Notes under the pieces: generated by a model
Told to the model about the DNA's origin: nothing
Databases searched by the model: none
What the model saw: only the letters and a program-made list of their open reading frames with translations
Shown: one piece after another, positions 12,762 through 58,747 of the stretch
Layout: each line of letters starts with the position of its first letter
How positions within the stretch are numbered: the first letter of the stretch is position 1
Made by a program: the position numbers and the translations under genes
Assembly (NCBI GenBank): GCA_964614065.1
Contig: CAZTJJ010000001.1
Coordinates: forward strand, 9,028 to 73,027
Source of the DNA: an uncultured Thermotogae bacterium
GTDB taxonomy: Bacteria; Bipolaricaulota; Bipolaricaulia; M55B111
DNA: 64,000 nt
Direction of reading: 5' to 3'

Positions 12762-12786
12762 TATTTGCGGATAGGAGGTATATAAA

Positions 12787-40834: not shown

Positions 40835-41932
40835 TTGAGCATGAAAAAATGGTACGCCATTCAAACCTACGCGGGCTCAGAGTTAAAGGTTAAGCAGGAG
40901 CTTGAGAGGCGTATAGAAAACCGTGGGCTTGAAGGTCAGGTAAAGAGTTTTGCTGAGGACGGCAAGCGGGATTTTTGTGTGGTGCCTATTGAAGAGGTAA
41001 TTACCTCTCGTAGCCGGAGAGGTAAGTCGAATGAATATAGAGTACCTTACAACTACGATTTATTAGTCGAGGCAAACGAACGGCTTTCTAGGCATGACCC
41101 ACTTGCACGAAAGAAACCCAAACATATAGAGTGGGATTGCTTGGTAGAAGAGATTAAGTCTCTGCAAAGAGTAATCATAGAGATGACAAACAGGACGGAG
41201 GAAACTTACCTTATCCCTAAGGATAAAAGGATTAGAAGGGATATTAGGAAGGGCGAGAAGATAAGATCAGGCGTCCCCTTGACCTCAGATCAGGAGGAAA
41301 AGTTTGTTGTTAGTATAAAGGGAAAAATAGCTTTAAGAGATAGAGTTAAACAAATTACGTTTATTCTCGATGATGGTTCTGAAAAAGAGTTGATAATTCC
41401 CGAAAGGTGCCTGGTTAGGTTGAGGGAGGGTGACGAGTTAAACGAAGGTGACATGATCGAGAAGGAAGATGTAATTAAGTCGACGTCGTCTGGAATGGTC
41501 AAAGTTAAAGAATACAAAGACAAGCGAGTGGTTACCGTTCAACCTGTGGAAAAACGTAGGTTATTTCCTGGTTATGTATTTGTAAAGATGGATCTTCCGG
41601 AAGAACAGATGATTGATTTGATTGATGATATTAGGGGAGCAGTGAGGTTTGTGGGATCTAGATATCATCCAATACCGATACGTGGAAAAGAGATGAAGGT
41701 TATAAAAAGGTTGGCTGGTTTGATAGAAGCGCCAACTGCTCCTAGTACTCCGCGTATCGAAGTCGACTTTGACGTGGGAGAGGTCGTGGAAATTGTGGAG
41801 GGACCATTTGCTGATTTCACTGGAGAAATTACGGCGATAGATAAGGAGACTGAAGAGGTAACTGTCAACGTTAAGATATTTGGCCGAGAAACTCCGGTAG
41901 ACATCGGTTTCGAAGGAATAGAGAAAATTTAA
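40835..41932 (+). CDS. nusG: Transcription termination/antitermination factor NusG carrying a large insertion domain.
   Basis: N-terminal NGN 'KKWYAIQTYAGSE' and C-terminal KOW 'GEVVEIVEGPFADFTGEI'. At 365 aa, an insertion of about 190 aa is implied inside NGN, as in Thermotoga and Aquifex NusG. Confidence 0.88.
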   Translation: MSMKKWYAIQTYAGSELKVKQELERRIENRGLEGQVKSFAEDGKRDFCVVPIEEVITSRSRRGKSNEYRVPYNYDLLVEANERLSRHDPLARKKPKHIEWDCLVEEIKSLQRVIIEMTNRTEETYLIPKDKRIRRDIRKGEKIRSGVPLTSDQEEKFVVSIKGKIALRDRVKQITFILDDGSEKELIIPERCLVRLREGDELNEGDMIEKEDVIKSTSSGMVKVKEYKDKRVVTVQPVEKRRLFPGYVFVKMDLPEEQMIDLIDDIRGAVRFVGSRYHPIPIRGKEMKVIKRLAGLIEAPTAPSTPRIEVDFDVGEVVEIVEGPFADFTGEITAIDKETEEVTVNVKIFGRETPVDIGFEGIEKI

Positions 41933-44491: not shown

Positions 44492-47400
44492 TTGAGGGAA
44501 CGAACGGATTTCAGCACGTACGGTGAAGCAATCGAACCACCCGATTTACTCAAAGATCAAAAAGACTCTTATACTAAATTTCTAACTACTGGCATTGAGG
44601 AAGCATTTAGCGAAGTTTCCCCCATCAAGGCGAGTAGTCGGACAAACTTCAGCTTAGAACTCCTCAATCCGTCCTTGGGAGATCTTCGAAGCTCCGTTAG
44701 TGATTGTGCTGATAAAGATCTGACCTACGATAGGCCGTTGCGGGTCGAGGCTCGCTTATCAGACGACGAAGGTGAGGTTGTTGCGGAGAATGAACTTTAC
44801 GTTGCGGATATACCCGTAATGACACCAAAGGGAACGTTTTTGATCAATGGTTCGGAAAACGTTTTGGTCAACGAATTGGCTCGAGCACCTGGTGTTTACA
44901 TTACAGCAGAGCGCAATAACCAGTATAAAGCACACATCCTACCAGATTACGGTGCATGGCTCGAATTGATTTTAGACGATAATAGGGAGAGAGTTTACGC
45001 TAATCTGGACAGGGAAGCTAAGGTTCCGATAACTGTGTTTCTGAGGGCTTTGGGGATGGATCAGGAGGATATATATTCCAAGTATAGTTTCGAGGTCAAC
45101 CCCGTTAAGGAAGCAGATTTGTTGGACTACGTGGACTACGTTTTGGCTGAGGACGTCACGAGCGATGATGGATTATTGATTAACGCTGGTGAGAAACTCA
45201 GAAAAGAGGACGTGGCCTTGATAGTCAAAGAGGGCACTAACGAGTCGATTTCTTTCTTGGATAGATATATTGGGAACACTCTGAAGAGAGATGACTTACG
45301 GACTAAAGAAGAAGCAATCAGGTTTATCTATGCCAAGTTGAGACCTACTGGTCGCGTTTCTACCACCAAAATGGAGAATTACATACACGGACTTTTCTTT
45401 GACGAAGAAAACTACCTTCTTTCAGAGGTTGGCAGGTTTAAAGCCAATAGCAAGCTTGGATTGGACGAAGAGACTTTAGCGTTAACAGAGAAGGATATCT
45501 TCAGGTCGCTCGATTTGCTGTTACAGGTTCCTTACAATCCAGAGTTATTAGATGAAAAAGATCATCTGGCAAATAAAGTGGTGAATTTGCCCGGCAAGGC
45601 AGCTAGAGCGGCTTTTGAAAGGGGTTTAAATAGAGTTGTCCGAACTACAGCCGATAAATTATCTAAGTTTAGTCTGGATGATGACGACACCCTTCGTGAC
45701 ATCGTCCCAACTAGGCCCGTTCAATCTTCGCTCAATCAGTTCTTTTACACGGGAAGGTTTTCCCAGTTTCTCGAGGAAACGAATGCTTTGGCAGAGCTGA
45801 CTCATAAAAGAAGACTTAATGCCTTAGGGGGTGGCTTGAGTCAACGCAGGGCGAAGCTAGAAGTGCGAGACGTTCACCCGTCTCATTATTCAAGGGTATG
45901 TCCAATTGAGACCCCCGAAGGACAAAATATTGGGTTGATAACCTCGCTGGCAAATTATGCCCATATCAACGAATATGGTTTTATTGAGGCGCCTTATCAA
46001 AAGGTTGAAGAAGGTCGAGTGACGGGAGAGATTGAATATCTCATGGCTGGCGAAGAAGAGCAGTACGGAATTGCACCATCGACAACGGAAGTAGATGAGG
46101 ATGGGTATCTGGTTGGCGATAGGATAGAGATCCGGACTGGCAAGGAAGATATCCAGCTTGGGAGACCGGAGGATGTGGATTTTGTCGGTGTGTCTCCGAA
46201 GGCAATTGTTGGAGCTTCTGCCTCGTTAATCCCTTTCCTGGAGCATGACGACGCAAATAGAGCGTTGATGGGTGCAAATATGCAGCGGCAGGCGGTTCCA
46301 TTATGTAACCCGGAGTCACCTTTTGTTGGAACAGGCATGGAAGCCAAAGCTGCCGAGGATTCTGGAATGCTGGTTATTGCTGAGAAGCCGGGGAAGGTCC
46401 AGTACGTGGACGCTGATAGAATCGACGTTGAAGAAGGCACTGACACCGTCAAATCCTATAATTTGAAGACGTTCACCCGCTCAAACCAGGACACTTTGGT
46501 TCACCAACGGCCTCTTGTTGAGAAAGGTGATAATGTAGAGAAAGGTGACGTGTTGGCTGATGGCTCTACAAGTGATCATGGTGAACTTGCCCTTGGCCGG
46601 AATCTCAGGGTTGCCTTCATGCCGTTCGAAGGTTACAACTACGAAGATGCAATAGTCGTATCGGAACGGTTGGTAAAAGAAGACCTCATGGATTCTATAC
46701 ATATAGAGGAATTCGAGGTCAAGGCAGAGGAAACGAAACTCGGTCCGGAAGAAATAACTGATGATATACCCAACATCAGTAAAGAAGACTTAAAAAATCT
46801 TGATTCACGGGGAGTAATTCGAGAAGGGACAGAAGTCGAAACAGGTGACGTGTTAGTAGGTAAAATAACTCCCAAAGGTGAATCTGAGCCGAGCCCCGAA
46901 GAAAAGATATTCCGGTCTATATTCGGAGAACAGGCCAGGAACGTCAAGGATTCGTCGCTCAAGCTCCCTCCCACAGCCGGCAAAGGAAAAATCATTAGAG
47001 TTAAGCGGTTTTCTCGTGATGAAGGAGACGAGCTGGATACGGGGATTAACGAGCTTGTAAAGGTTTACGTGGCCACCCGAAAGAAGATTTCGATTGGTGA
47101 TAAGCTGGCTGGACGACATGGAAATAAAGGTGTTATCTCCAACATACTGCCCGAGGAAGACGTGCCATTCCTGCCGGATGGCTCACCCGTGGACGTTTTA
47201 TTGAACCCACTGGGTGTTCCATCCCGGATGAACCTAGGTCAAGTGTTTGAAACCCACTTGGGCTGGTTGGCTTCTTTAAAAGATGAATACGTTTCTACAC
47301 CCGTGTTCGACGGAGCCAAAGAGGGGGAAGTGCTAGAGGAACTCTCAAAGGCCCAGGCACAAACAGGGTTAAGTGACGGTTCGAACGACGATGGCAAAGT

Positions 47401-47824
47401 GGTTCTGAGAGATGGTCGAACAGGAAAGCCTTTCGATAGGCCAATTACCGTGGGTTATATGTACGTTCTCAAGCTTGAACACATCGCTGACGAGAAGTTG
47501 CACGCCAGATCTACCGGCCCATATGCTTTAATTACTCAACAACCTCTCGGCGGTAAGGCACAGTTTGGTGGCCAGCGTTTTGGAGAAATGGAGGTATGGG
47601 CTCTTGAAGCTTACGGGGCGGCGAGTACCTTGCAGGAAATGCTGACCTTAAAGTCCGACGACATTCACGGCCGGACAAAATTGTACAAGGCGATATTAAA
47701 GGACGAACCCATGCCTAGACCAGGAATTCCCGAATCCTTTAAAGTGCTGGTCAGGGAGTTACGGGGCTTAGGGCTTGCTCCAAAAGCTCTAGATAAAACC
47801 GGGAATGAACTTGACCTGTCCTGA
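44492..47824 (+). CDS. rpoB: DNA-directed RNA polymerase beta subunit.
   Basis: 1110 aa; 'GGQRFGEMEVWALEAYGAA' and other Rpb2 signatures; complete C-terminus. Confidence 0.98.
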   Translation: MRERTDFSTYGEAIEPPDLLKDQKDSYTKFLTTGIEEAFSEVSPIKASSRTNFSLELLNPSLGDLRSSVSDCADKDLTYDRPLRVEARLSDDEGEVVAENELYVADIPVMTPKGTFLINGSENVLVNELARAPGVYITAERNNQYKAHILPDYGAWLELILDDNRERVYANLDREAKVPITVFLRALGMDQEDIYSKYSFEVNPVKEADLLDYVDYVLAEDVTSDDGLLINAGEKLRKEDVALIVKEGTNESISFLDRYIGNTLKRDDLRTKEEAIRFIYAKLRPTGRVSTTKMENYIHGLFFDEENYLLSEVGRFKANSKLGLDEETLALTEKDIFRSLDLLLQVPYNPELLDEKDHLANKVVNLPGKAARAAFERGLNRVVRTTADKLSKFSLDDDDTLRDIVPTRPVQSSLNQFFYTGRFSQFLEETNALAELTHKRRLNALGGGLSQRRAKLEVRDVHPSHYSRVCPIETPEGQNIGLITSLANYAHINEYGFIEAPYQKVEEGRVTGEIEYLMAGEEEQYGIAPSTTEVDEDGYLVGDRIEIRTGKEDIQLGRPEDVDFVGVSPKAIVGASASLIPFLEHDDANRALMGANMQRQAVPLCNPESPFVGTGMEAKAAEDSGMLVIAEKPGKVQYVDADRIDVEEGTDTVKSYNLKTFTRSNQDTLVHQRPLVEKGDNVEKGDVLADGSTSDHGELALGRNLRVAFMPFEGYNYEDAIVVSERLVKEDLMDSIHIEEFEVKAEETKLGPEEITDDIPNISKEDLKNLDSRGVIREGTEVETGDVLVGKITPKGESEPSPEEKIFRSIFGEQARNVKDSSLKLPPTAGKGKIIRVKRFSRDEGDELDTGINELVKVYVATRKKISIGDKLAGRHGNKGVISNILPEEDVPFLPDGSPVDVLLNPLGVPSRMNLGQVFETHLGWLASLKDEYVSTPVFDGAKEGEVLEELSKAQAQTGLSDGSNDDGKVVLRDGRTGKPFDRPITVGYMYVLKLEHIADEKLHARSTGPYALITQQPLGGKAQFGGQRFGEMEVWALEAYGAASTLQEMLTLKSDDIHGRTKLYKAILKDEPMPRPGIPESFKVLVRELRGLGLAPKALDKTGNELDLS

Positions 47825-48254
47825 TGATCAAACCGCGGTAGAAATTTCTGCTGGTGTAATATCTTATCGTTGTTTTTCTAATACCCACAAGTATTTGTTA
47901 ATAAAGCACGCTAATGGGGGGCATTGGAGTTTTCCGAAGGGGCACGTCGAAACTGGTGAAAGTTTAAAGGAAAGCGCAGTAAGGGAGCTATCCGAAGAAA
48001 CCGACCTGTCCGTAAAGAAATTTGTCAGTGGCTTTCGTGAGAAGGTAGCTTATCACATTCGCCGAGAAGGAGAAATTGTTAGAAAACGGGTAGTATATTT
48101 CTTAGCCAGGGTCACTGATGGAGAAGTGGAATTGTCTCCAGAACACGTCGATTTCAAGTGGCTTTCCCATGAAGAGTGTTTGGACGTGATTACGTACGAG
48201 GACGATCGAAGTCTATTGAACTCTGCAGAGCAGACGTTAATTAATCAAGCATAG
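47805..48254 (+). CDS. NUDIX hydrolase.
   Basis: Nudix box 'GHVETGESLKESAVRELSEETDL'; the ORF overlaps the rpoB 3' end by 20 nt. Confidence 0.8.
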   Translation: MNLTCPDDQTAVEISAGVISYRCFSNTHKYLLIKHANGGHWSFPKGHVETGESLKESAVRELSEETDLSVKKFVSGFREKVAYHIRREGEIVRKRVVYFLARVTDGEVELSPEHVDFKWLSHEECLDVITYEDDRSLLNSAEQTLINQA

Positions 48255-48273
48255 ACCAAGGTATTCCAAAAAG

Positions 48274-49146
48274 ATGAGCTTACCTGAACACGTGCACCTT
48301 ATAGATACAGGATTATTTGGTTACCAAAACTATGGAGCAAGTTATGTTATTGGTTGTTCCGAGCTTGCACTGGTAGATCCTGGTACATCAAATGCAGTTT
48401 CAGCAATAGAGAGCTGGTTTACGGAAGGCTCAGCTGACCTTTCAGACTTAGCCAGTATTGTACTTACTCACATTCATCTTGATCATGCTGGCGCAACTGG
48501 CGAGCTGGTCAGGATGGTTCCCGACCTAAAAGTTTACGTACATGAGCGCGGTGTTCCTTATCTTGTCGATCCAGCTGACCTGATTGAGAGCGTAAAACAA
48601 GCTACTGGCGACCGCTTTCCTCAGTATGGTACGTTAGCACCGGTACCTCAAAAAAATATCGTTCCTATTAAGAACGAAACCACCATTTCCATTGGGGATC
48701 TAGATCTCTTGGCTTTACCCACCTCAGGTCATGCTCCTCATCATATCTCCTATTTAGAGAAAGAATCTCGAATAATGTTTCCCGGTGATAGTGCCGGGCT
48801 TTACGTGGATCACCAGCTTATACCTACTACCCCACCTCCGTCCTTCAATCTGGAGGAAAGTATATCCAGTTTGGAAAAAATGAAGGAGAAAAGACCATCT
48901 ACGTTACTTTTCCCCCATTTTGGAACAAGAAAGAACCCACTCGAGTTGATGGACAAATACCAGGAACTTCTGGTGGATTGGGTTAATTCTATTCGGGATA
49001 AGTACTTAGCTGGAACCCCACGGGAGGAGTTAGATTCGTGGGTAGTCAGGAACTTTGACCAGTGGCTCGGTAATGGTTTTACCGAAGAAGAGCTGTTGAT
49101 GAATCTGTCCGGCGTGATACGATATCTCTCCTGGCGTAGTTCTTAA
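48274..49146 (+). CDS. MBL-fold metallo-hydrolase.
   Basis: 'HIHLDHAG' metallo-beta-lactamase motif, plus downstream His/Asp ligands. Confidence 0.8.
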   Translation: MSLPEHVHLIDTGLFGYQNYGASYVIGCSELALVDPGTSNAVSAIESWFTEGSADLSDLASIVLTHIHLDHAGATGELVRMVPDLKVYVHERGVPYLVDPADLIESVKQATGDRFPQYGTLAPVPQKNIVPIKNETTISIGDLDLLALPTSGHAPHHISYLEKESRIMFPGDSAGLYVDHQLIPTTPPPSFNLEESISSLEKMKEKRPSTLLFPHFGTRKNPLELMDKYQELLVDWVNSIRDKYLAGTPREELDSWVVRNFDQWLGNGFTEEELLMNLSGVIRYLSWRSS

Positions 49147-49168
49147 TTCAGGGGAGTCCGAGATCGAG

Positions 49169-51325
49169 ATGGCGAGAAAAAAGTTTGCTCGGGTCGCCGT
49201 TTTCTTACCTATAGACAAAATATTTGAATACTCTGTTCCCTCGGAACTGGCAGGAGAAGTGACCAAGGGTTCTATATGCGAGGTTCCATTTAGAGATAAG
49301 GCCGAACATGGTGTGGTTCTTGACCTCCAAGAACAAGGAAGTTATGAGGGAGAGTACAGCGAGATATCCCGGTTACTTTCTCCTGTTCCACTGTCTGATA
49401 ATTTAATTAAGCTGGCAGAATGGCTCTCCGAATCCACACTCACTCCATTAGGACAGGTTTTCAACCGCATGATTCCCGCTGATCTTTCTATTAATCCAAG
49501 GAAGAAAAAGGTTATAGGCATTAACGCTACCTTTTCACGGGTGAAAGATTTTGTCGAGGAATTCGGTTCCCGCGCGCCAAAGCAGGCCGCTTTATTGAAG
49601 TTGCTTTTATCGACCGATGGTTACATGACTAAACGAAGATTGTTAGATGAAGCAAGATGTTCTAGGTCTCCTATCGACTCTTTGATAGGAAAGGGATTGG
49701 TGCGTGAAAAGTCTGTGCCGAATCTCTCTGATGATTCCGTGTGGTCTGACTTAACCATCGCGCTTGCCAAAGGCAAAGGAAGTCAGGGGAAGGCGAGAAT
49801 TCGAACTAATACTTTTGGAGTGTTTACCGTTCCTGGAGAGTTGAGATCAAGGTTGCAGGTGTACCTAAACTGTATAGATAAGCTAGCATCTGAAGGTAGC
49901 GTGTTGGTGCTCGTTCCCAATACGTTCAGGGCTGAGGAAACCAAAAGGTTGATCAACAGAAAATTGAGTCTCAGCTGTTATGCTTACCATAGTGGGTTGT
50001 CAGCAGGAGAAATATCCAGGCGCTGGCAACTGGTCCAGTCTGGCCAACCAGACGTAGTTGTCGGGGTCATAAATGCGATCTATTTACCTTTTCCTGACCT
50101 TCGTGGGATAGTCGTGGACGGGGAGGGCGACAGGAATTATGCGTTAACTGAGCAGGACCCCAAAGGAAACCTTGTGGATATATCTCTGTATCGAGCGAGA
50201 TTAGAAGATGTCCCAATTCTACTCGGAGACTCGAGCCCTTCTGTATCCACGTATTATGCTTCCACTCGTGGAAAGGCAACTTCTTTAACTCAGTATTTCT
50301 TCCCTGAAGCCGCGGGAACAGCTGATTTAATCATCGAAGACACCAGCTATTTAGCTGGTACACGCAGTTTAGGTAACGTCATGAAAGAGAGGGTGCTTGA
50401 AACCATTTCCGAGGATGAGCCCGTCTTGTTGATCGGTGAGCGGACCAGGCAATCAAATGTCATAATATGTGGTGATTGTGGGAAAGTGATGAAGTGTCCA
50501 AATTGTGAGGTAGCCTTAAAATTTACTAGTTCGGGCCATTTTGGCTTTTGCCCATATTGTGGATATAAGGAGGAACTGGTAACTTGCCCGAACTGTGGCG
50601 GCGAAAACCTGAATTTCCTCGCAGCTGGTTTGGAAGAAGTTGAGTCAGAATTAACTGATTTTTTGCCGTCCGCTTCCATAGAGAGGTTCGATTCCAGAAC
50701 GAGTGGCCCATACCAGCTTTTCCAGCTAGTTCGTAAATTGTTGACCGGAGAGCTTGATGTATTGATGGGTACATGGGTTGCTGCTAGTTACTTTCTTTAT
50801 CACAAGGTAGGGCTTGTAGGATTACTGGATCCAGACTTAGTGTTAGACTGGTCGAGTTATCGCTCTACGGAAAGGTTTATCAAGAAGGTTCTTCGTGGAT
50901 TAGATTTGGGCGGAAAGGATGGTACTTTGGTTGCCCAGAGTTATCATCCTGATAATCCCGTAGTGAGTGCCGTGCGCTCGCGCCAGTGGAAAAGAATTTA
51001 TCAAGATGAGCTTGCTTCAAGACAAAGACTAGCCTACCCACCTTTTATTGATCTGGTTGAGGTTCACGTTAAAGCAACCGAAGAGGATGAAGTTAGGGCT
51101 ATTGCCACTGATTTGAAGGATAGAGTTGCCGGGCTGGCAGGGGTTAATGTTGTGCTTGGTCCGGTGAAACTACATCCGAATCCAAAAAGTGGCGAATACG
51201 AATTGAAGCTTTTGGTCAAAGTGAATTACTTAAGTAGCTTCTTGGAAAAATTACCGGAGGTCCTTCAGAGCATTAATCGTGATCAGATACGTTTAGTGCC
51301 AGTCTTTTCGAGATTTGACCCTTAG
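49169..51325 (+). CDS. priA: Primosomal protein N' (PriA) homologue with degenerate helicase motifs.
   Basis: 3'-BD N-terminus 'ARVAVFLPIDKIFEYSVP...GSICEVPFRDK'; Cys4+Cys4 zinc-binding insert 'CGDCGKVMKCPNCEVALKF...CPYCGY...CPNCGG'; PriA-like core 'LVLVPN...YHSGLSAGE...IVVDGEGDRNY'. The Walker A lysine and the DEEH box are absent. Confidence 0.8.
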   Translation: MARKKFARVAVFLPIDKIFEYSVPSELAGEVTKGSICEVPFRDKAEHGVVLDLQEQGSYEGEYSEISRLLSPVPLSDNLIKLAEWLSESTLTPLGQVFNRMIPADLSINPRKKKVIGINATFSRVKDFVEEFGSRAPKQAALLKLLLSTDGYMTKRRLLDEARCSRSPIDSLIGKGLVREKSVPNLSDDSVWSDLTIALAKGKGSQGKARIRTNTFGVFTVPGELRSRLQVYLNCIDKLASEGSVLVLVPNTFRAEETKRLINRKLSLSCYAYHSGLSAGEISRRWQLVQSGQPDVVVGVINAIYLPFPDLRGIVVDGEGDRNYALTEQDPKGNLVDISLYRARLEDVPILLGDSSPSVSTYYASTRGKATSLTQYFFPEAAGTADLIIEDTSYLAGTRSLGNVMKERVLETISEDEPVLLIGERTRQSNVIICGDCGKVMKCPNCEVALKFTSSGHFGFCPYCGYKEELVTCPNCGGENLNFLAAGLEEVESELTDFLPSASIERFDSRTSGPYQLFQLVRKLLTGELDVLMGTWVAASYFLYHKVGLVGLLDPDLVLDWSSYRSTERFIKKVLRGLDLGGKDGTLVAQSYHPDNPVVSAVRSRQWKRIYQDELASRQRLAYPPFIDLVEVHVKATEEDEVRAIATDLKDRVAGLAGVNVVLGPVKLHPNPKSGEYELKLLVKVNYLSSFLEKLPEVLQSINRDQIRLVPVFSRFDP

Positions 51326-51520: not shown

Positions 51521-53830
51521 ATGGATAGATTTAATACCAGTGGATTGTCGAATCCGGTTTATTGTTTCTTAATCTGCATATTCGTCTTCTCGTTGGGATA
51601 TGTAGTAGTTGGCCAATCTTACCGGCCAGTTGGAAAAGCCGATCCAATTATTGCTTATATACTTGATAGACAACAGCGAGTATCTAATTTATCTGACACT
51701 GAGCTAAAACTGGAATCTTTTATTGGTTCAATTGATCTGTACAGGGATAATTTATTTTTCCCTGCATCTGCCGGGATCAAAGGTACTTGCTCGCGAAACA
51801 GGGTTACGGAGAAGGAGCTTGACAAAACCGGTATGTATGACATTGGGGTAATAGCAAAATTTACAAAACCTGCCATATATGTAGATATGCCTGGATTGAC
51901 CATTACTTCCACCATGGGCAGAATTGCGACTGCGATAGCCAATGTAAATTCCATCTCATCTCTTCTGGCAGCCGACGATGTGGAATATCTTGCTTCCTCA
52001 CGACCCGTGTATCCCTTACTTACGGAGAGTGTACCTGCTGTTAATGCGGCGTCTTTACACAATACCCAGCCAATGGATCGTGGCGAAGGCGTGATTATTG
52101 GGTTCGTCGATTCCGGTATTGATTACGATCACCTGGATTTCCGCCGTGACGAGGACGGTCAAATCCCCGGAGAGGAGACGTCCCGGATTTCATTTATATG
52201 GGATCAGACGGATGGCTATGGGTTACCGCCAAATGGCTACAGTTACGGGAGTGAATACTCGAAAAGCCAGATAGAACAGGATATCCGCTCGGGATTGGGT
52301 CCTACAGAGGGAGCAGTAAGAGAGGTGGATGAAGAAGGTCATGGAACTCACATTGCCGGGATAGCTAGTGGGGATGGGTCTTCTTCAGATCTCGGGTTCG
52401 TGGGCATGGCTCCTGATTCATCTTTGATCTCCGTGAAGACGACTTTTTCAACAAGTTCTGTCCTGGATGGGGTTAGCTACATAGAACAAAAAGCTTACGA
52501 ACTCGGCCAGCCCGTGGTTGTTACAAATCTTTCATTGGGAACCCAGTACGGTCCACACGATGGAACGTCTTTATTCGAGGAAACATTGACGAATCTCTCT
52601 TCCGATAGCCACATTATAGTGGTTTCAGCCGGGAATTCCGGCGATAAAAATATTCATCTTGGAGTGGATACGTATCTAGGAATGAGTGAAGAGTACTCGA
52701 TCTACCTTCCAGTTTATAGTCCTTCTTCTGAAGTTTCCGATCATTTTAATCTCGATGGGTACTACGACAGTGGTGGTTATATAGAGGCCAAGGTAATTGG
52801 TCCAGATCAGGCTGAGACTGATTGGGTAGGTAAGGGTGAAGCGGCTTCGTTTGTAATGAGCAGCGGTAGCGTGCTTATCTCTAATGGCCCATCGACCATT
52901 ACTGGTGATACTCAATTGTTTGTTCGGGTTGGTGATTTACAACCAGATACCCCTCCTGATCCAGGCAATTGGCGATTGCGTATTCGGGCAGCTTCGTCGT
53001 CTCGATTGGATATGTGGGTAAGCAGTAATTTGCTCGGAAATGCCTGTAGGGATATCGAATTTTCGGAGGGCAATACGAAGATGACGATTGCAGAGCCAGG
53101 TAACGCTCGGGACGTAATAACGGTGGGCTCATTTAATACGAGAAATAGTTGGGACGGGAAATCCGTTTTCGGCTTTCCAGCTGGGAGCTTATCTGATTAT
53201 TCAAGCAAAGGTCCAACGAGGGATGGAAGAGTTAAACCGGATGTTTCTGCACCTGGGGCGTGGGTGGTATCTACTTTATCTGGATCAGCGAATGTTGATG
53301 ATTTTTATCTAGTTTCAGACGGCTTGCACTGGTCTATGGCTGGCACCAGTGTTTCTGCACCTCACGTCGCTGGTGCGACTGCTTTAGTTTGGTATGCAGC
53401 ACCAGAATCCACTGGTGCTGAAGTAACCGCTCGGCTATGTGAGACAACAGATTCCGAAGGGGTGTTCTTGCCCAATAACGAGTGGGGATGGGGTAAACTG
53501 AACGTGGGAAAAAGTGTATTTAGTTTCGGGATTTCAGGCGATGAACTGGATCAAGATCTGTGGATTCGAGCTACTCCAAACCCAGCTCAGGAATACGCGG
53601 ATCTTTTTTATAGTTATCCCGAAGGTGCTGCGAAGTTAAGGATTGAGATTTATAATGTTCTTGGCAGGGTTGTCAAGGAGATTGACGAAAGCGAATTGAC
53701 CGACGGTTTGAAGTATCGGTGGTATTTAAAAAACGATGATGGCATACCACTTGCAAACGGACTCTATATTTACTTGATCAGGATTGAAGATCGATGCTCC
53801 GATTTGAGTAGACTTGTGATAAGGAGATAA
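51521..53830 (+). CDS. Subtilisin-like (S8) serine protease with a C-terminal T9SS/Por-type sorting domain.
   Basis: S8 triad contexts 'GFVDSGID', 'HGTHIAG', 'GTSVSAPHVAG'; C-terminal ~80 aa 'NPAQEYADLFYSYPEGAAKLRIEIYNVLGRVV...NGLYIYLIRIE' resembles a Por_Secre_tail/FlgD-Ig CTD. Confidence 0.85.
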   Translation: MDRFNTSGLSNPVYCFLICIFVFSLGYVVVGQSYRPVGKADPIIAYILDRQQRVSNLSDTELKLESFIGSIDLYRDNLFFPASAGIKGTCSRNRVTEKELDKTGMYDIGVIAKFTKPAIYVDMPGLTITSTMGRIATAIANVNSISSLLAADDVEYLASSRPVYPLLTESVPAVNAASLHNTQPMDRGEGVIIGFVDSGIDYDHLDFRRDEDGQIPGEETSRISFIWDQTDGYGLPPNGYSYGSEYSKSQIEQDIRSGLGPTEGAVREVDEEGHGTHIAGIASGDGSSSDLGFVGMAPDSSLISVKTTFSTSSVLDGVSYIEQKAYELGQPVVVTNLSLGTQYGPHDGTSLFEETLTNLSSDSHIIVVSAGNSGDKNIHLGVDTYLGMSEEYSIYLPVYSPSSEVSDHFNLDGYYDSGGYIEAKVIGPDQAETDWVGKGEAASFVMSSGSVLISNGPSTITGDTQLFVRVGDLQPDTPPDPGNWRLRIRAASSSRLDMWVSSNLLGNACRDIEFSEGNTKMTIAEPGNARDVITVGSFNTRNSWDGKSVFGFPAGSLSDYSSKGPTRDGRVKPDVSAPGAWVVSTLSGSANVDDFYLVSDGLHWSMAGTSVSAPHVAGATALVWYAAPESTGAEVTARLCETTDSEGVFLPNNEWGWGKLNVGKSVFSFGISGDELDQDLWIRATPNPAQEYADLFYSYPEGAAKLRIEIYNVLGRVVKEIDESELTDGLKYRWYLKNDDGIPLANGLYIYLIRIEDRCSDLSRLVIRR

Positions 53831-53834
53831 TTAC

Positions 53835-54785
53835 ATGTTTAGCCGAAAAAGGATTGCGGGTAAATCGCTTGTCTTTTTCTTTATTTTACCCTTGCTGGTA
53901 GTTTGCTCTTCCCTGGCTGGATACTCTTCGTCCGGGGCAGGGGGAGGTTGTGATAACGTGGCCGCGATATTTGATCTGGGAATGGGAGCGCGTCCCATGG
54001 GGATGGGTGGGGCCTTTGCCAGTTTGGCTGATGATGAAAATGCAGTGTTCTATAATCCCGCTGCTCTCGCTTACCTTGATAGGGTCGGAGTTACGTCTCT
54101 TTGGTCCCCTCAATTTGGGTTGATCGATTACGGCGGTTTGGGGTTGGCCGGCAAGTATTTTGGATTAAACATGACTATTCTATCTTCAAGTCTCATACAA
54201 ATCCCTAACGAATTCAGCGCCCCTACAGGCGATAATTTTACTTATTTGAGCAGTGGAGGGGTTGTAGGTTTTGGCCTCCCCCTAATTGATAATTTGTCTT
54301 TTGGCGCCCGGTTGAAATACTATTATTCCCACTTATCTATTGACTCTGCAGGTGATGGGTTTGGATGGTCGGTGGAGCCTGCATTGCTAGCGAAAGGTGC
54401 TGGTTTTAGGTTTGGTCTTATTTTCGAAAATGCTCTTTCGAGTGATTTGAGGTATGGAAATTCTTATAAGGAAGAATTTAACCGGGCTATTCGATTGGGT
54501 GTTTCTTATCGGACTATGGTGACCACGAACGTCAGTGTGGTCATGTTGTCTGATCTCGAATCGGAGTTTGATGACTTGATCAACGCTGACCTTTCTTTCT
54601 TAAAGCCGTATGTGGGTATCGAGGTTTGGGCTGACTCTTTGGGTGTAAGAGCTGGTTACAATCAAAGTGGGGTGACGATTGGTTCGTCTATTGATTTAGA
54701 TTTTGTCAGGTTGGATTGGGCATATATTGCTTATCACACTGGGATTGATGGTAGTCATAAAGTGTCTCTAACTTATAGATTTTGA
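53835..54785 (+). CDS. Outer-membrane beta-barrel protein, FadL/PorV-like.
   Basis: Signal peptide; N-terminal 'GMGARPMGMGGAFASLADDENAVFYNPAALA' matches the FadL/PorV-family motif; alternating beta-strand pattern; C-terminal '...YRF' (the OMP terminal Phe). Confidence 0.55.
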   Translation: MFSRKRIAGKSLVFFFILPLLVVCSSLAGYSSSGAGGGCDNVAAIFDLGMGARPMGMGGAFASLADDENAVFYNPAALAYLDRVGVTSLWSPQFGLIDYGGLGLAGKYFGLNMTILSSSLIQIPNEFSAPTGDNFTYLSSGGVVGFGLPLIDNLSFGARLKYYYSHLSIDSAGDGFGWSVEPALLAKGAGFRFGLIFENALSSDLRYGNSYKEEFNRAIRLGVSYRTMVTTNVSVVMLSDLESEFDDLINADLSFLKPYVGIEVWADSLGVRAGYNQSGVTIGSSIDLDFVRLDWAYIAYHTGIDGSHKVSLTYRF

Positions 54786-57700
54786 TATACCGGTTGATTT
54801 TTGTGCATATAAGGTCTCGCTGGAATAAATTCTTCTTAATTTTTCTATATATTCCTTTTGTAATCACTCTACTTGTTGGTCTGGAGGCACACCCGCTTAC
54901 AGTTCAGACTGAGTCATTTAAAATTCAGTTGGCGGGAAAAAAGACCTGGGACCTCAAATTCGGGTTGGGTGACGGAACCAGCCTATCTAGAGTTGGTTAC
55001 CCTGACGACTCTTTTTCATTACAACAATCATTAGTCGTTGACCTATCAGGGGAACTTGGGGACTATTTTTCAGTTGCTGCCGATTTGAACGACAGCGAGC
55101 CAGGTTATTTACAGGAATTTAGATTATCTATGGATACGGACAACTGGGATGGTACTCTTGGGAACTTTTCCGTGGGTCAGAAGCATAATTTTACTGTTTA
55201 CAACAAAAAATTACTTGGATTGAGGCTCTCCGGCCAGGTGGAAGAATCCCAGCTTGAAACAGTATTGGGACGGCTCCAAGGTATATCTGAAACTGAGGTG
55301 TTTTATGGCAAAACTGCTGAGGCCGAGGTTACTTTCAGCCTCTATGAGACAGATGAGGGACTTGTAGAGAGAGGTTATAAGACAAATATTAAGGGCCTCG
55401 AGCATTTCGGCTTGGATCAGCAGTACGTGGAAGGATTTACGGATCCCACCCTGGATTTTCTTCTCTCTCAGGGGCTGTGGGATTTTCTGGCAGATTGGGG
55501 GTTTAGCTATTTAAAGGATACGATTGAAGTCGAAAACAGTAAAGAAGTTAGTTCAGGCCGGTTTAAAGTGGTTAATGTTAAGAAGGATTTTCTTATTTTA
55601 ACTGCCAGTAGGTTATCCCTCCTCCGATCCAGGATAAAAAGCTATATTTCAGACTATAACGAGGACCAAGCGGACGAGGAGCAAAAAGAGTACCCATTTA
55701 ACGAAAACACGAAATACGAACTGAATTTTCTCCGCCAGCTTCAAGAATACGTAAGGTTGGTAGTGGGGGATGAGAAACTGCAATTATCAAATTATGAGCT
55801 TTATAGGTTTTATTCGCTGGAAGAGACGAGCATTGAGGAGGATTCACTCTCTGTAGAAGTCTACAAAAATAACCAATGGACGTCGGTGGGATCTTTACCA
55901 AATTACAGTTATAAATTGTTTACGGATCAGGGAATAATTGATTTGGATTTCCCCCAGGATTTTTTCAATGAGCTGAAGAAGAAGAAGATAGAGGTGTCTT
56001 TCCAATACGAGATATCAGGAAACATGTACATGTTGGGATTTTCTGTGGCCCCCAATAGTGAACGCGTTTATCTAAATGGCGATTTACTTACCAAAAATAC
56101 GGATTACACGATCGACTATGAGACGGGCTCGTTGCTTGTGTTTAGAGAGGTTGGCCCCGATGATAAATTAAAAGTTGACTACGAGAGGGCCCGTGGAGGA
56201 ATTGGTGGTTATGCTGAGTACCCAAGAAACTTATATGGTTTCACCATGAAAATGAAGTCTGATTACGGGCTAGGACTTACTGTCAGCACTTTTCAAGCTG
56301 GTGACCAAGCTGGCGAAGATATATCCGCCGAAATCCCAATAATGCCTAATGTTCACACTGTTGCCGGTGTCGATGGTAAGTATCAACAGAATGGCTGGGA
56401 TATTAACTTTCAGATCAGCGGGAGCATTAACGAGTTTCCTGTTGGAGATAACCAGCGAAAGAACCTAACGAATAGAATTAACGATGTACTTAGCTTATCG
56501 GAGAGTGGTTATGACTTAACCTTATTTGCTCATCAAGATGGTTTTACAGTCCTAAAAGGGGAAGACTGGCTGTCATATGGTCCACAAGACGGGCTAGCTG
56601 GTACCTGTGTATCGGATGCTTTGTTGGTCGATAACTTGTTGGTACTTGCCGTCAGTTCGGGAATTACTACAATAGAGCTTGTCGGTGAATCGCCGTTGGA
56701 TAGGGCTGTCAACTGGGAAAGTTACTACGATCTGGACAACTTGGATGATTTAGAGGTTTTGGATCTGGCTACTGATGGTCAAACTGCTTGGGTAGCGACG
56801 GGTTCTGGTGTCTTTGGCGCTAGTTTGACCAATCTGGATGAGGATGATCCTTGGGGTCTGATAACTTCGAGCAAATTTGATGATCTTTCGGTTACTGAAA
56901 TTGAATATACCGGTGGTTATCTCTGGTTTGGAACTAGTCAAGGGTTATATCTGTTTGATCTTGAAACCGAACAGCTCGTTCAGGATGACCCGTTATTATC
57001 CCAAGAGGTCGTCGAGTTGAAGGCGCAGTTTGACGATGTTTTAGTGGTTACTACCGCTGGAATATCCAGGATTAATCAAAACTTGGAACCCGTGAATCTG
57101 TTAACCAGTTCTTCAGTGATGTCGTTGGCGGTAAGCGGGGAAGAAGTCTGGTACGGTACTGATAGTGGTTTTTCAAAAATTGGTTCTTCACATAGGTATG
57201 GGGAAAAAGAGATTACAGCTATATTGGCATCTGAGGAGGGAGTGTGGGCCGGTAGCAAAGGATATACATCTCAAGATAACTACGATATACTTCTTTATCT
57301 GTTAAGGGATAATTTAACAGAGTACAGTTCAACTGACACTTCTATACCAGGTAAGGATGAAAATCGTTATCGAAATATTGATCCGACTTTCCATACGGAT
57401 AGAGGTGTTGCAGCTAACGTGGATGTAACCAAGACTTTTACCCTCTGGTCGAGGGAGTTTTTCTTCTCTACGGGCACCGAGTACCGTCAACCAACGTACT
57501 CAGAAATAGGTAAATTTACAGAAGCAGATAACCTTATTGCTGGGGTCTCTCTGGGTGGTGAGCTATTCAAAGGATTTAACTTGGAAGCTAGCGGGGATTA
57601 CTCATTAACTTCGTTTTCAACTGAAGAAAACACCCTGGTTACAACCACGAGCTTGCTGGCTGAGTGGGATTGGTTTGTTAACAGTAGTGCCGAGGTTTAC

Positions 57701-58747
57701 TGGAAAGAGAAGCAGGATGAGACTAGGGAGATTGGTTTGAGCTTCCGGGGGATAAAAGGTCTCTGGGAGGATAGATTGAATTTGGAATTCGGCCTCTCCG
57801 GCGTAGATGAAATAGATCTGAAGGATGAAAGTTCTGATATATATGCTAGCCTTTCGTCGTCAGCTAATATTACCCTTATTGAGTCCGTCACTTTTAATCT
57901 CTCTTATTCGGTCCCCCTCGCCTTTGAACCATTTACGAAGGAGGAGGCAGAGACGTTGGTTTGGGATTTTGCTCTTTCTCGGGGGTTTCCTTTGGGATCG
58001 AATTATGGCTTAAAGGTGCAGTTGGATGATAAGGGACAGGTGGACGATTTGCTTACATCGGGCGAGGTGGATTTAACCAACCAAACAGAGCTTTCTTTAG
58101 ATTTTGATAAAATAGACTGGGGGCTTGCTACCCTCTCACCGTCTACTCTCTTTTCCTGGAAGTTTTCTGGTTCCGCTAACAAGATATCTGGAAAGATTAG
58201 TGGGAATCTTGGCGTGGATGATCTTAAAGCTCGCCTTTCATTAAGCAGGAAAGCAACATTACCTATTAATAGTCAGTTGGTCAAAATTAAGGACCAGCTC
58301 TCTGGAAAAGTTGACTATAGCCTGGGTCAGGTTACACCAACTTTGTCCTATGGTTTAGGGAGGACAAGTTTACAACACCCAACCTACGGTCACCAAACAC
58401 AATATACCGGCAACTTGGCTTTTTCATCTGGTTGGCGACCTTTTACGAACGTGCGAAACAAGGTAACAATTGGCATTGATTATGAATCTGAAAGTGATTT
58501 TTCTTACAGGCTTTTCGATCAAGTCGACTGGGAAATAATAACTAATCTTACCCCTCAATTTAGTTTCGATCTGGATTACGTGCCTTCTACAGAAGAGTTC
58601 GATTTTACTGCTAGGGCGGAGACTTCCTATCCCTTTTCTGATATGTGGGGTTTCTCGTTCACATCTGGGTTTAATTGGGGGATAAAGGAATCCGGTAATA
58701 TTTATACTAGTTTCTTTGGCGCTACGGGGTTGAAGGTTACATTCTAG
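54782..58747 (+). CDS. Giant hypothetical outer-membrane protein (1321 aa) with internal beta-propeller-like repeats and a C-terminal barrel-like region.
   Basis: N-terminal hydrophobic anchor; Reg_prop-like repeats ('GGYLWFGTSQGLYLFD', 'EEVWYGTDSGFSKI'); long amphipathic-strand C-terminal region ending 'GLKVTF'. Overlaps the upstream barrel gene by 4 nt. Confidence 0.6.
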   Translation: MIYRLIFVHIRSRWNKFFLIFLYIPFVITLLVGLEAHPLTVQTESFKIQLAGKKTWDLKFGLGDGTSLSRVGYPDDSFSLQQSLVVDLSGELGDYFSVAADLNDSEPGYLQEFRLSMDTDNWDGTLGNFSVGQKHNFTVYNKKLLGLRLSGQVEESQLETVLGRLQGISETEVFYGKTAEAEVTFSLYETDEGLVERGYKTNIKGLEHFGLDQQYVEGFTDPTLDFLLSQGLWDFLADWGFSYLKDTIEVENSKEVSSGRFKVVNVKKDFLILTASRLSLLRSRIKSYISDYNEDQADEEQKEYPFNENTKYELNFLRQLQEYVRLVVGDEKLQLSNYELYRFYSLEETSIEEDSLSVEVYKNNQWTSVGSLPNYSYKLFTDQGIIDLDFPQDFFNELKKKKIEVSFQYEISGNMYMLGFSVAPNSERVYLNGDLLTKNTDYTIDYETGSLLVFREVGPDDKLKVDYERARGGIGGYAEYPRNLYGFTMKMKSDYGLGLTVSTFQAGDQAGEDISAEIPIMPNVHTVAGVDGKYQQNGWDINFQISGSINEFPVGDNQRKNLTNRINDVLSLSESGYDLTLFAHQDGFTVLKGEDWLSYGPQDGLAGTCVSDALLVDNLLVLAVSSGITTIELVGESPLDRAVNWESYYDLDNLDDLEVLDLATDGQTAWVATGSGVFGASLTNLDEDDPWGLITSSKFDDLSVTEIEYTGGYLWFGTSQGLYLFDLETEQLVQDDPLLSQEVVELKAQFDDVLVVTTAGISRINQNLEPVNLLTSSSVMSLAVSGEEVWYGTDSGFSKIGSSHRYGEKEITAILASEEGVWAGSKGYTSQDNYDILLYLLRDNLTEYSSTDTSIPGKDENRYRNIDPTFHTDRGVAANVDVTKTFTLWSREFFFSTGTEYRQPTYSEIGKFTEADNLIAGVSLGGELFKGFNLEASGDYSLTSFSTEENTLVTTTSLLAEWDWFVNSSAEVYWKEKQDETREIGLSFRGIKGLWEDRLNLEFGLSGVDEIDLKDESSDIYASLSSSANITLIESVTFNLSYSVPLAFEPFTKEEAETLVWDFALSRGFPLGSNYGLKVQLDDKGQVDDLLTSGEVDLTNQTELSLDFDKIDWGLATLSPSTLFSWKFSGSANKISGKISGNLGVDDLKARLSLSRKATLPINSQLVKIKDQLSGKVDYSLGQVTPTLSYGLGRTSLQHPTYGHQTQYTGNLAFSSGWRPFTNVRNKVTIGIDYESESDFSYRLFDQVDWEIITNLTPQFSFDLDYVPSTEEFDFTARAETSYPFSDMWGFSFTSGFNWGIKESGNIYTSFFGATGLKVTF

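Follow-up and report, generated by a model that had tools for sequence, protein, structure and literature searches.

An open reading frame in the 64-kb window (the whole stretch of DNA analysed here) is probably the orthologous priA of halophilic Candidatus Bipolaricaulota (Acetothermia), one whose SF2 motor appears to have been inactivated during evolution and whose product would still serve in ATP-independent fork recognition and restart. The source organism is a salt-lake Bipolaricaulota bacterium. As read from its residues, the product has the ancestry and architecture of a PriA without being a PriA helicase: the residue sets for nucleotide binding and hydrolysis (motifs I, II, III, V, and VI) and the elements for translocation and coupling (motifs Ia and IV and the aromatic-rich loop) are all missing, and the domains of a PriA are kept around them.

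Identity and architecture of the PriA homologue

A sequence-only reading had assigned the frame to PriA, an assignment on which Pfam, NCBIfam, phmmer, and Foldseek all agree, and the strings that it quoted are present in the translation (GVFTVPGELRS at residues 217-227, LVLVPN at 246-251, YHSGLSAGE at 273-281, and IVVDGEGDRNY at 314-324). Against the NCBIfam priA equivalog HMM, TIGR00595, the product scores 253.9 bits (cut-off 230.35), and it falls far under the cut-offs of the PRK05580 and PRK14873 sub-models. Residues 6-682 were matched by phmmer to the Klebsiella pneumoniae and Escherichia coli PriA structures (4NL4, 6DGD) at E=2.8e-54. An AF2 model of the 718-aa protein (pLDDT 86.7, pTM 0.85) was searched against the PDB with Foldseek, and the best nine matches were all PriA (E 1e-45 to 1e-31, TM about 0.7), followed by Mfd at E 2e-11. 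The domain order, 3'BD-WH-HD1-HD2(CRR)-CTD, is that of solved PriA structures. The locus and domain features, all on the plus strand, are as follows.

44492-49146, +, syntenic anchor of rpoB (44492-47824), NUDIX (47805-48254), and MBL-fold hydrolase (48274-49146)
49150-49156, +, Shine-Dalgarno-like AGGGGAG, 12 nt 5' of the priA ATG, found by sequence inspection
49169-51325, +, priA orthologue encoding the predicted pseudohelicase, 718 aa, ATG start, stop codon included
49190-49477, +, 3'-DNA-binding domain (3'BD), residues 8-103, kept; Pfam PF17764 (PriA_3primeBD)
49496-49723, +, winged-helix domain (WH), residues ~110-185, kept; from AF2 secondary structure
49814-50323, +, former RecA-like lobe 1 (HD1), residues ~216-385; aligned to K. 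pneumoniae and E. coli PriA HD1
50324-51028, +, former RecA-like lobe 2 (HD2) with the inserted cysteine-rich region, residues ~386-620; aligned to HD2 of solved PriAs
50468-50596, +, cysteine-rich region (CRR), four CxxC pairs, kept; C434 to C476
51041-51292, +, C-terminal domain (CTD), residues 625-708, apparently kept and fast-evolving; Pfam PriA_C, AF2

The 3'BD is covered in full by PF17764 (E=8.5e-19, profile positions 1-96 of 96), its net charge in the core clade of relatives described below is the same as in canonical Bipolaricaulota PriAs, and the position of E. coli PriA D17 (FDY) aligns to FEY. In the winged helix, AF2 places elements E112-118, H122-174, and E178-184 with pLDDT 81-90, while lobe 1 preserves its fold without the catalytic motifs, mostly at pLDDT 88-96. 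All eight cysteines of the CRR are present (C434, 437, 443, 446, 461, 464, 473, and 476) and are invariant or near-invariant within the clade; the region matches Pfam Zn_ribbon_PriA weakly, under threshold, and is predicted to be a two-zinc region in lobe 2. The CTD aligns to PriA structures and is modeled at pLDDT about 90, with a PriA_C score of 21.9 bits, under the 26.9 cut-off; clade members P0016, P0017, and P0124 carry PF18074 (PriA_C).

Loss of the helicase motifs and rewriting of the junction loop

Motif states were read column-wise against E. coli PriA rather than by regular expression, which wrongly scored canonical Bipolaricaulota PriAs (P-loop GVN[GAN]SGKT) as Walker A-less. The positions checked in register were K230/T231, D320-H323, S356-T358, motif V, and R584/R587, and the affected elements in the gene are as follows.

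49817-49864, +, degenerate motif I/Walker A GVFTVPGELRSRLQVY, residues 217-232, canonically LLxGVTGSGKTEVY
49904-49933, +, degenerate motif Ia LVLVPNTFRA, residues 246-255, canonically LVxVPEIxLT
50117-50128, +, degenerate motif II/Walker B DGEG, residues 317-320, canonically DEEH
50129-50182, +, rewritten aromatic-rich loop position DRNYALTEQDPKGNLVDI, residues 321-338, canonically SYKQ-ExxPRYHxRD
50225-50239, +, degenerate motif III GDSSP, residues 353-357, canonically GSATP
50768-50800, +, degenerate motif V GTWVAASYFLY, residues 534-544, canonically GTQMxAKGxxF
50885-50914, +, degenerate motif VI KVLRGLDLGG, residues 573-582, canonically QVAGRAGRAG

The sequence-only reading had proposed that Walker A and the DExH motif were lost, and both losses hold in register, GVTGSGKTEVY of E. 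coli PriA corresponding to PGELRSRLQVY and DEEH to DGEG. Its view of the protein as ATPase-dead is strengthened by the further losses of the aromatic-rich loop and of motifs Ia (PEIGLTPQ to PNTFRAEE), III (GSATP to GDSSP), IV in lobe 2 (NRRG to GERT), V (GTQMLAKGHHF to GTWVAASYFLY, with G534 and T535 the only survivors), and VI, where both arginines are gone and 3 aa are deleted. Each clade member keeps between none and two of the seven catalytic residues K230, T231, D320, E321, T579, R584, and R587; for the present protein the count is none or one. Motif II reads [DE][GD][ED][GA] across the clade, and in the Walker A region L229 and Y232 alone are invariant, the former P-loop appearing as GELRS, GAFCD, STERE, ETGDK, or SSGQK among members.

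Intact motifs displaced elsewhere by a mis-registered indel had been raised as one way in which this view could fail. Regex scans found no Walker A (GxxxxGK[ST]), Walker B, or GRxGR elsewhere in the protein and no P-loop in any alternative frame. Likewise, Pfam detected no DEAD, ResIII, or Helicase_C domain in the frame even at E<=1, whereas the canonical relatives all carry helicase domains of these types.

Constraint is relaxed specifically at the ATPase motifs, while the fork-recognition domains and the zinc region are still constrained. Column identity at the motifs lies at 0.43-0.57, the clade background, versus 0.73-0.99 in canonical Bipolaricaulota PriAs (Ia 0.57 vs 0.99, III 0.52 vs 0.94, V 0.47 vs 0.90, and VI 0.43 vs 0.90), and the corresponding values elsewhere are 0.55 vs 0.49 for the 3'BD, 0.47 vs 0.43 for the winged helix, 0.61 vs 0.54 for the CRR, and 0.74 vs 0.76 for the aromatic-rich loop position. 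Motif Ib and the pre-VI YRSTE block are conserved at the canonical level or above.

These columns bear on whether the protein might still work as an ATPase or helicase by way of non-canonical residues, such as an Arg at K230 and the acidic residues left in D-G-E-G. Most members do have an Arg at or near the Walker lysine (RLxxY), one or two acidic residues are left at motif II, and RecA-like folds are confidently predicted by the model. The P-loop alignment is, however, ambiguous between a 1-aa deletion and a 2-aa insertion, such that a replacement of K230 by Arg depends on the alignment chosen, and four members have Leu instead of Arg at the lysine position. Moreover, K230R by itself abolishes the ATPase of E. 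coli PriA (PMC5778457, PMC4504706), and the P-loop has lost its glycines and Thr, motif III its SAT, and motif VI its two arginines, with motif V missing too. The former P-loop columns are variable (Walker A 0.43 vs 0.92), so there is no conserved alternative nucleotide-binding loop, and the equivalents of W333 and Y335, essential for coupling, are missing. We regard such an enzyme as very improbable.

W333 and Y335 of E. coli PriA belong to the aromatic-rich loop, which acts as a wedge where the fork branches in the PriA cryo-EM structure (PMC10175261) and which has here been rewritten from SYKQQEGWRYHARD to RNYALTEQDPKGNLVD. The rewritten loop is near-invariant in the core clade, with R322, N323, L326, Q329, D330, and P331 invariant, and is restricted to that halophilic clade; four relatives in an outer group (P0122-P0125) are without it. 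Since this outer group has lost all motifs and does not have the new loop, motif loss preceded the loop.

Orthology, relatives, and selection

The order rpoB-NUDIX-MBL-priA recurs at pseudohelicase loci L001-L008, L012, and L013, and synteny is identical in six pseudohelicase lineages. At locus L010, from a related Acetothermia genome, the MBL gene is followed by a canonical priA (P0285) with DEAD and Helicase_C domains, and the NUDIX and MBL genes of the window are homologous to their counterparts there (tblastn, E=2e-38 and 3e-61). Because this locus is shared with a canonical priA, the frame is its positional orthologue.

Relatives with the same losses and the same length form ~21-22 clusters (31-78% identity) from Candidatus Bipolaricaulota MAGs, and those with a traceable source are hypersaline. 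The core clade comprises 17 clusters (at 90% identity) and P0121, and the outer group comprises P0122-P0125, of which P0124 and P0125 keep the Bipolaricaulota-type GVRKA[VL]FAP. When a clade profile was searched against 8188 PriA cluster representatives, the best canonical matches were of Bipolaricaulota type (P0127 and P0128). An NJ tree recovered the pseudohelicase group as monophyletic on a long stem, with a star-like backbone and no resolution of deep branches; other degenerate PriAs that group with the clade in this tree are probably drawn there by long-branch attraction, and the tree was left unused for deep placement, orthology being based on synteny. Within Bipolaricaulota, the proteins form a gradient from intact (P0285) through partly eroded (P0293 and P0296) to fully eroded (P0122-P0125 and the halophilic core clade). 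P0285 and the fully eroded forms have the rpoB-NUDIX(-MBL)-priA locus in common, and the partly eroded P0293 keeps the MBL-priA adjacency alone. PriAs with eroded catalytic residues also occur in at least nine further lineages.

The gene is under purifying selection. Compared with a 78%-identical orthologue, its dN/dS is 0.205 (NG86, dS=0.59), and the domains range over 0.10-0.31, lowest in the 3'BD (0.10), followed by the CRR (0.14), lobe 2 (0.14-0.17), winged helix (0.21), lobe 1 (0.28), and CTD (0.31). Functional neighbour genes have values of 0.04-0.23, and priA lies inside this range, at its high end.

A decaying pseudogene, a paralogue made redundant, or an artefact of assembly or frameshift could be imagined from the loss of every catalytic motif and from the name 'hypothetical protein' that several relatives carry at NCBI. 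The decaying paralogue had been put forward as an alternative by the sequence-only reading, and it fails on the overall dN/dS of 0.21 (<=0.31 in each domain), on the clade-wide occurrence of the losses at a conserved length of 700-722 aa, and on the location of the gene at the locus of the canonical priA. Intact open reading frames occur in ~22 independent clusters from many samples and assemblers, the eight cysteines and about 100 other columns are invariant, and no motif can be recovered from other frames. Explanations of this kind are already contradicted by the data and are scarcely credible.

A derivative of PriA that has acquired a new, non-restart role deserves more consideration. It might be a regulator that binds DNA in a structure-specific way, or a partner-docking scaffold around the RNYxLxEQDPKGNL loop, with restart left to a second PriA or another system. 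In its favor, priA is the fastest-diverging gene of the syntenic block (about 40% identity vs 47-91% for its neighbours), of 132 columns that are invariant in canonical PriAs, the clade varies at 83 and has a different conserved residue at 13, and a clade-specific conserved loop has appeared. Charge has also shifted strongly: net positive charge is lower in the core clade than in canonical Bipolaricaulota PriAs (HD1 -8.4, CRR -8.1, HD2 -5.3, CTD -5.0, and WH -4.8), which could make the binding of lagging-strand ssDNA weaker or could be simply a mark of halophilic acidification. Against a new role, the 3'BD, winged helix, CRR cysteines, and apparently the CTD are kept with conservation at the canonical level or higher, and the outer group is motor-less without the new loop, so that motif loss came first. 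Positional orthology with the canonical priA means that any second copy must have been acquired separately, and tblastn with canonical PriAs found no second PriA-like gene, only one gene per locus, in the 64-kb window and the loci of 8 relatives (about 165 kb). On balance, we consider a non-restart derivative unlikely, and an orthologous priA with an inactivated motor remains the better account.

In a separate screen by isoelectric point, which is a weak proxy, no halophile-type canonical PriA under pI 5.7 was found among 366 retrieved PriAs; in any case, most bacteria have an acidic GroEL, DnaK, and EF-Tu. The priB, dnaT, and dnaB partners that the sequence-only reading had proposed to look for are all absent from the 64-kb window, as are dciA, dnaC, ssb, rep, and recG.

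Comparison with known PriAs and a proposed role in restart

Relative to canonical PriA (TIGR00595; 4NL4, 6DGD, 8FAK), the protein shares the domain order, 3'BD, winged helix, eight-cysteine CRR, predicted fold, and probably the CTD, and canonical Bipolaricaulota PriAs (P0285 and P0128) are of similar length (714-735 aa), with P0285 at the same locus. Unlike canonical PriA, to which it is 27-30% identical, it has lost all SF2 ATPase motifs and helicase Pfam domains and has a rewritten aromatic-rich loop, and the proteins of its clade are acidic (pI about 5-6.5) where canonical PriAs are basic (median pI 9.2).

Naturally motor-less PriAs have been described before. [quoted passage not shown] 2015, PMC4504706), and D. 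radiodurans PriA has neither ATPase nor helicase activity but binds ssDNA, forks, and DnaB (PMC4504706). The earlier description of the present protein as unusual therefore stands, though it is not unprecedented, given this published pseudohelicase. The two groups have in common a full-length protein with degenerate Walker A and B, lineage-wide retention, a presumed ATP-independent role in restart, and, in most members, an Arg aligned at the Walker lysine, which is alignment-dependent here. They differ in that the Bipolaricaulota protein is also without motifs Ia, III, IV, V, and VI and the aromatic-rich loop, whereas the published work highlights motifs I and II, and in that D. radiodurans PriA was assayed biochemically and the inactivity of the Bipolaricaulota protein is predicted from sequence.

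Motor loss in Bipolaricaulota was apparently independent of that in Deinococcus-Thermus, whose PriAs enter this comparison via their published description, because synteny, shared sequence signatures, and the closest canonical relatives all point to Bipolaricaulota and because that phylum contains canonical PriAs alongside partly and fully eroded ones. The clade would thus apparently be the second natural case of a motor-less PriA after Deinococcus, independently derived and more thoroughly eroded. Whether motor loss in PriA is a recurrent evolutionary outcome that extends beyond Deinococcus is, in our judgment, evenly balanced.

Engineered E. coli variants offer a further comparison. The K230R substitution abolishes ATPase activity, and yet priA300 cells are near wild type and the variant supports restart (PMC5778457), while K230A PriA has been employed in DnaB-loading assays (PMC10175261); priA300 is defective in the PriA-PriC pathway and in Mu transposition (PMC5778457). 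Like K230R, K230A, and K230D, the Bipolaricaulota protein is predicted to be an ATPase-dead PriA, and the E. coli variants, which retain fork recognition and can sustain primosome assembly and DnaB loading, show that a mechanism of the kind proposed here is feasible. In those variants, however, one residue is substituted in an intact motor, whereas in Bipolaricaulota the entire nucleotide site and the coupling loop have been remodelled. Further, the E. coli variants act with PriB and DnaT, partners that are not expected outside certain Proteobacteria.

By analogy with E. coli K230R and D. radiodurans PriA, the protein most likely functions as an ATP-independent scaffold for fork recognition and replisome reloading. 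It would recognise abandoned forks and D-loops by their structure and, once bound, may nucleate reloading of the replicative helicase without ATP, either directly or via a partner; where the lagging strand is duplex, the cell would need another helicase to open the fork or would have to avoid such forks. Such ATP-free reloading is consistent with the behavior of E. coli K230R in the PriA-PriB pathway and with the binding of D. radiodurans PriA to forks and DnaB.

If motor loss is indeed recurrent, the conserved core function of PriA would be ATP-independent fork recognition and loader scaffolding, and the invariant RNYxLxEQDPKGNL loop of the halophilic clade would have taken the place of the aromatic-rich loop as a novel functional element, serving either as a wedge at the fork junction or as a docking site for a partner. 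A second pseudohelicase, positionally orthologous to a canonical priA and under purifying selection, would support the view that the indispensable job of PriA is to recognise abandoned forks and recruit the replicative helicase, and not to unwind DNA. The intact, partly eroded, and fully eroded proteins of Bipolaricaulota offer a series of natural variants for finding the PriA surfaces that restart requires, and they bear on what may substitute for lagging-strand unwinding and on how restart proceeds in bacteria without PriB, DnaT, and PriC, which are missing from many bacteria. Replication-restart capacity is also under-annotated in these MAGs, because NCBI names several such proteins 'hypothetical protein'.

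Identity and motif content of the PriA homologue

49169..51325, forward strand: priA-like ORF of 718 aa with an ATG start, from ORF reading
12 nt upstream of that ATG, forward strand: Shine-Dalgarno-like AGGGGAG, from sequence reading

The sequence-only reading had called this product a PriA homologue, and every peptide string it quoted was found in the translation. The homology was borne out by Pfam, with the 3'-DNA-binding domain (3'BD) at residues 8-103 (E=8.5e-19), by the NCBIfam priA equivalog TIGR00595 (253.9 bits against a cut-off of 230.35), by phmmer against PDB sequences, where K. pneumoniae and E. coli PriA match residues 6-682 (E=2.8e-54), and by Foldseek. The AlphaFold2 model, from an input alignment of 41 sequences, reached pLDDT 86.7 and pTM 0.85 and was poor only in the linker 186-215; its best nine Foldseek PDB matches were all PriA (E 1e-45 to 1e-31, TM ~0.7), and Mfd was the next family (E 2e-11). 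All eight cysteines of the cysteine-rich region (CRR) are kept, PriA_C and the PriA zinc ribbon gave sub-threshold Pfam matches, and DEAD, ResIII and Helicase_C gave none, even at E<=1. Separately, the database cluster representative P0001 is one residue apart (G->R in YHS[G/R]LSAGE, residues 273-281, window 49985 region), which, judged from sequence, indicates a close strain or an assembly variant of the same population.

With the motif register taken from alignment to E. coli K-12 PriA (L009) and canonical relatives, the degenerate Walker A and motif II claimed earlier were confirmed, and the erosion proved far wider than those two motifs.

Motifs of canonical PriA and of the window PriA
Motif I (Walker A): GVTGSGKTEVY; window PGELRSRLQVY
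Motif Ia: PEIGLTPQ; window PNTFRAEE
Motif II: DEEH; window DGEG
Aromatic-rich loop (ARL): SYKQQEGWRYHARD; window RNYALTEQDPKGNLVD
Motif III: GSATP; window GDSSP
Motif IV: NRRG; window GERT
Motif V: GTQMLAKGHHF; window GTWVAASYFLY
Motif VI: QVAGRAGRAG; window KVLRGLDLGG, with a 3-aa deletion

Alignments differ by one or two residues in the P-loop register, and none restores GK[ST]. Nor were intact motifs displaced elsewhere, a possibility the earlier reading had raised: a scan that detected GxxxxGK[ST], hhhhDE, DExH and GRxGR in the canonical control P0285 found none of them in the window PriA or in the region's three forward frames.

A putative pseudohelicase clade at an orthologous locus

A search of 5.8 billion proteins yielded 17 clusters (P0001-P0017; 38-100% identity, 713-722 aa) in which 3'BD is the sole Pfam domain and which, where named, are 'hypothetical protein [Candidatus Bipolaricaulota/Bipolaricaulia]'; the next matches, canonical PriAs with DEAD and Helicase_C, score far lower (250 against 558 bits). 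Searching 1.84 billion cluster representatives with a profile extended this core clade by P0121 and one fragment and revealed an outer group, P0122-P0125, at 550-600 bits (P0124 is labelled Ca. Bipolaricaulota/Acetothermia). Scored at the E. coli catalytic columns K230, T231, D320, E321, T579, R584 and R587, the core clade keeps 0-1/7 and the outer group 0-2/7, and 133/167 aligned sequences keep at least six; the sequence-only reading had proposed checking related genomes, and both groups share the losses. The GTDB genomes with relatives are Bipolaricaulota MAGs. Two Great Salt Lake MAGs, GSL_GSL3510_1 and _5, have a hypersaline source, and we take the sample names DAL-Ass_33 and Tobar15.5-16.5m to denote hypersaline sites.

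The window and pseudohelicase loci L001-L008 have in common a block of EF-Tu, secE, nusG, L11, L1, L10, L7/L12, rpoB, NUDIX, MBL and priA, continuing with S8 peptidase, a 316-aa ORF, an about-1320-aa ORF, NTP-transferase and PGI; in the outer group, P0124 and P0122 occur in an rpoB-NUDIX-priA context. The canonical PriA P0285 (Ca. Acetothermia, GCA_029907235.1; Pfam DEAD, ResIII, Zn_ribbon_PriA, Helicase_C and PriA_C) also directly follows rpoB-NUDIX-MBL, and the NUDIX (47% identity, E=2e-38) and MBL (37%, E=3e-61) at its locus are true homologues of the window's. About 100 further canonical Bipolaricaulota/Acetothermia PriAs were found (714-760 aa), canonical members having intact GVN[GAN]SGKTE, DEEH, GSATP, GTQMIGLGLDF and QAxGRAGRG. 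Among 8188 PriA cluster representatives, the two canonical proteins that best match the clade profile, P0127 and P0128, are both Bipolaricaulota-type, and the Bipolaricaulota-type GVRKA[VL]FAP persists in P0124 and P0125. Two partly eroded Bipolaricaulota-type proteins, P0293 and P0296, are 58-60% identical to P0128 and carry Walker A PSKT or GKAE, motif II DDEH or DGEH and altered motifs V and VI, with no Pfam match to Helicase_C; the MBL-priA adjacency is kept at the P0293 locus (JGI 3300003332 'GBSed'), and the pair may be intermediates in motor loss.

From the shared locus, the Bipolaricaulota-type relatives and signatures and the partly eroded forms, it follows that the loss arose inside the phylum, in the lineage whose rpoB shares at least 75% identity with that of the window. 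The window gene is the orthologue of a canonical priA, and the decaying paralogue offered earlier as an alternative is unsupported. No second PriA-like sequence occurs within the window or eight related loci, and dnaB, dciA, ssb, priB and dnaT are absent from the 64-kb window. In other Bipolaricaulia lineages (P0127, P0319) the canonical priA lies elsewhere, in the context gyrB-murC-ABC-priA; the P0319 WGS accession, JBDGQO01, adjoins that of L002, JBDGQU01, which hints at a possible common submission batch.

Natural PriA pseudohelicases are already known from Deinococcus-Thermus (PMC4504706), so the helicase-dead PriA described earlier as unusual is not unprecedented. Full-text searches returned no natural PriA pseudohelicase beyond that phylum and no paper tying PriA to Bipolaricaulota/Acetothermia. 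The Bipolaricaulota case is apparently independent (the NJ tree lacks resolution at deep nodes) and differs in its deeper erosion, which takes in all motifs and the ARL; it brings unusually clean orthology evidence to a known category. Nine further homologues keep 2-4/7 catalytic residues (P0130, P0154, P0157, P0192, P0204, P0234, P0253, P0261 and P0269), some on 250-430 kb contigs, and their sequences suggest that PriA pseudohelicases recur beyond both phyla.

Constraint and proposed function

Against the 78%-identical orthologue in L005, the window priA has dN/dS 0.205 (dS=0.59, Nei-Gojobori), with neighbouring genes ranging from 0.04 (rpoB, nusG) to 0.23 (NUDIX). Column identity was compared between the core clade (mean pairwise 47%) and 19 canonical Bipolaricaulota PriAs (54%).

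Constraint by region (dN/dS, window priA vs L005; column identity, clade vs canonical)
3'BD: dN/dS 0.10; identity 0.55 vs 0.49
Winged helix (WH): dN/dS 0.21; identity 0.47 vs 0.43
Lobe 1 (HD1): dN/dS 0.28
CRR: dN/dS 0.14; identity 0.61 vs 0.54
Lobe 2 (HD2): dN/dS 0.17
C-terminal domain (CTD): dN/dS 0.31
Motif Ib: identity 0.70 vs 0.66
ARL position: identity 0.74 vs 0.76
Pre-VI YRSTE block: identity 0.83 vs 0.88
Motif I: identity 0.43 vs 0.92
Motif Ia: identity 0.57 vs 0.99
Motif III: identity 0.52 vs 0.94
Motif IV: identity 0.44 vs 0.73
Motif V: identity 0.47 vs 0.90
Motif VI: identity 0.43 vs 0.90

The gene remains under selection, and the relaxation is region-specific. Conservation of 3'BD, WH, CRR, Ib, the ARL position and the pre-VI block equals or exceeds the canonical level, and the fork-recognition modules remain constrained. 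Motifs I, Ia, III, IV, V and VI have fallen to clade background. Constraint on the former nucleotide site is therefore gone, an argument against a cryptic ATPase of non-canonical type.

[quoted passage not shown] Reconstituted DnaB loading routinely employs K230A PriA (PMC10175261). D. radiodurans PriA, also without ATPase/helicase, has an affinity for ssDNA and forks close to that of the E. coli protein, and it binds DnaB (PMC4504706). [quoted passage not shown] We infer that the Bipolaricaulota protein would act as an ATP-independent, structure-specific sensor of forks and D-loops and would then nucleate replicative-helicase reloading, with another helicase presumably needed at forks with a duplex lagging strand. 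The rewritten, strongly conserved loop that stands in place of the ARL makes a good candidate junction wedge or partner dock.

Relative to canonical Bipolaricaulota PriAs, net positive charge is lost in clade HD1, CRR, HD2, CTD and WH, with 3'BD unaffected, and overall pI drops from a median of 9.2 to ~5-6.5. This could weaken ssDNA binding; halophilic acidification is another possible reading, as two members of the outer group stay basic (pI 8.6 and 9.1). The CRR of canonical Bipolaricaulota PriAs (P0128, P0285 and others) is strongly basic, with mean net charge +7.3 against ~0 in E. coli PriA and the clade.

Other features of the window

44492-48254: rpoB and a NUDIX hydrolase gene overlapping its 3' end by 20 nt
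51521-58747, downstream of priA: conserved three-gene cluster of S8 subtilase, 316-aa ORF and 1321-aa ORF
28801-29949, reverse strand: 382-aa ORF without Pfam match, flanked by the dnaK-dnaJ operon and a gene for an M42 aminopeptidase
10387-14342: NiFe hydrogenase small and large subunit pair adjoining an MTHFR pair
40835-41932: NusG with a NusG_add insertion domain

The rpoB-NUDIX overlap suggests translational coupling; no rpoC follows rpoB anywhere in the 64-kb window. The arrangement is kept in every related locus examined (L001-L008, L010, L012, L013), that of the canonical-PriA lineage among them, and so seems characteristic of this Bipolaricaulota group. The subtilase has a C-terminal FlgD-Ig-like domain; the 316-aa and 1321-aa ORFs, without Pfam match, have 47-51% identity in L001, L002 and L004, and the latter also occurs in L012 (36%). 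The hydrogenase and MTHFR genes fit the lifestyle of Wood-Ljungdahl acetogens that has been reported in hypersaline Acetothermia (PMC11287216).
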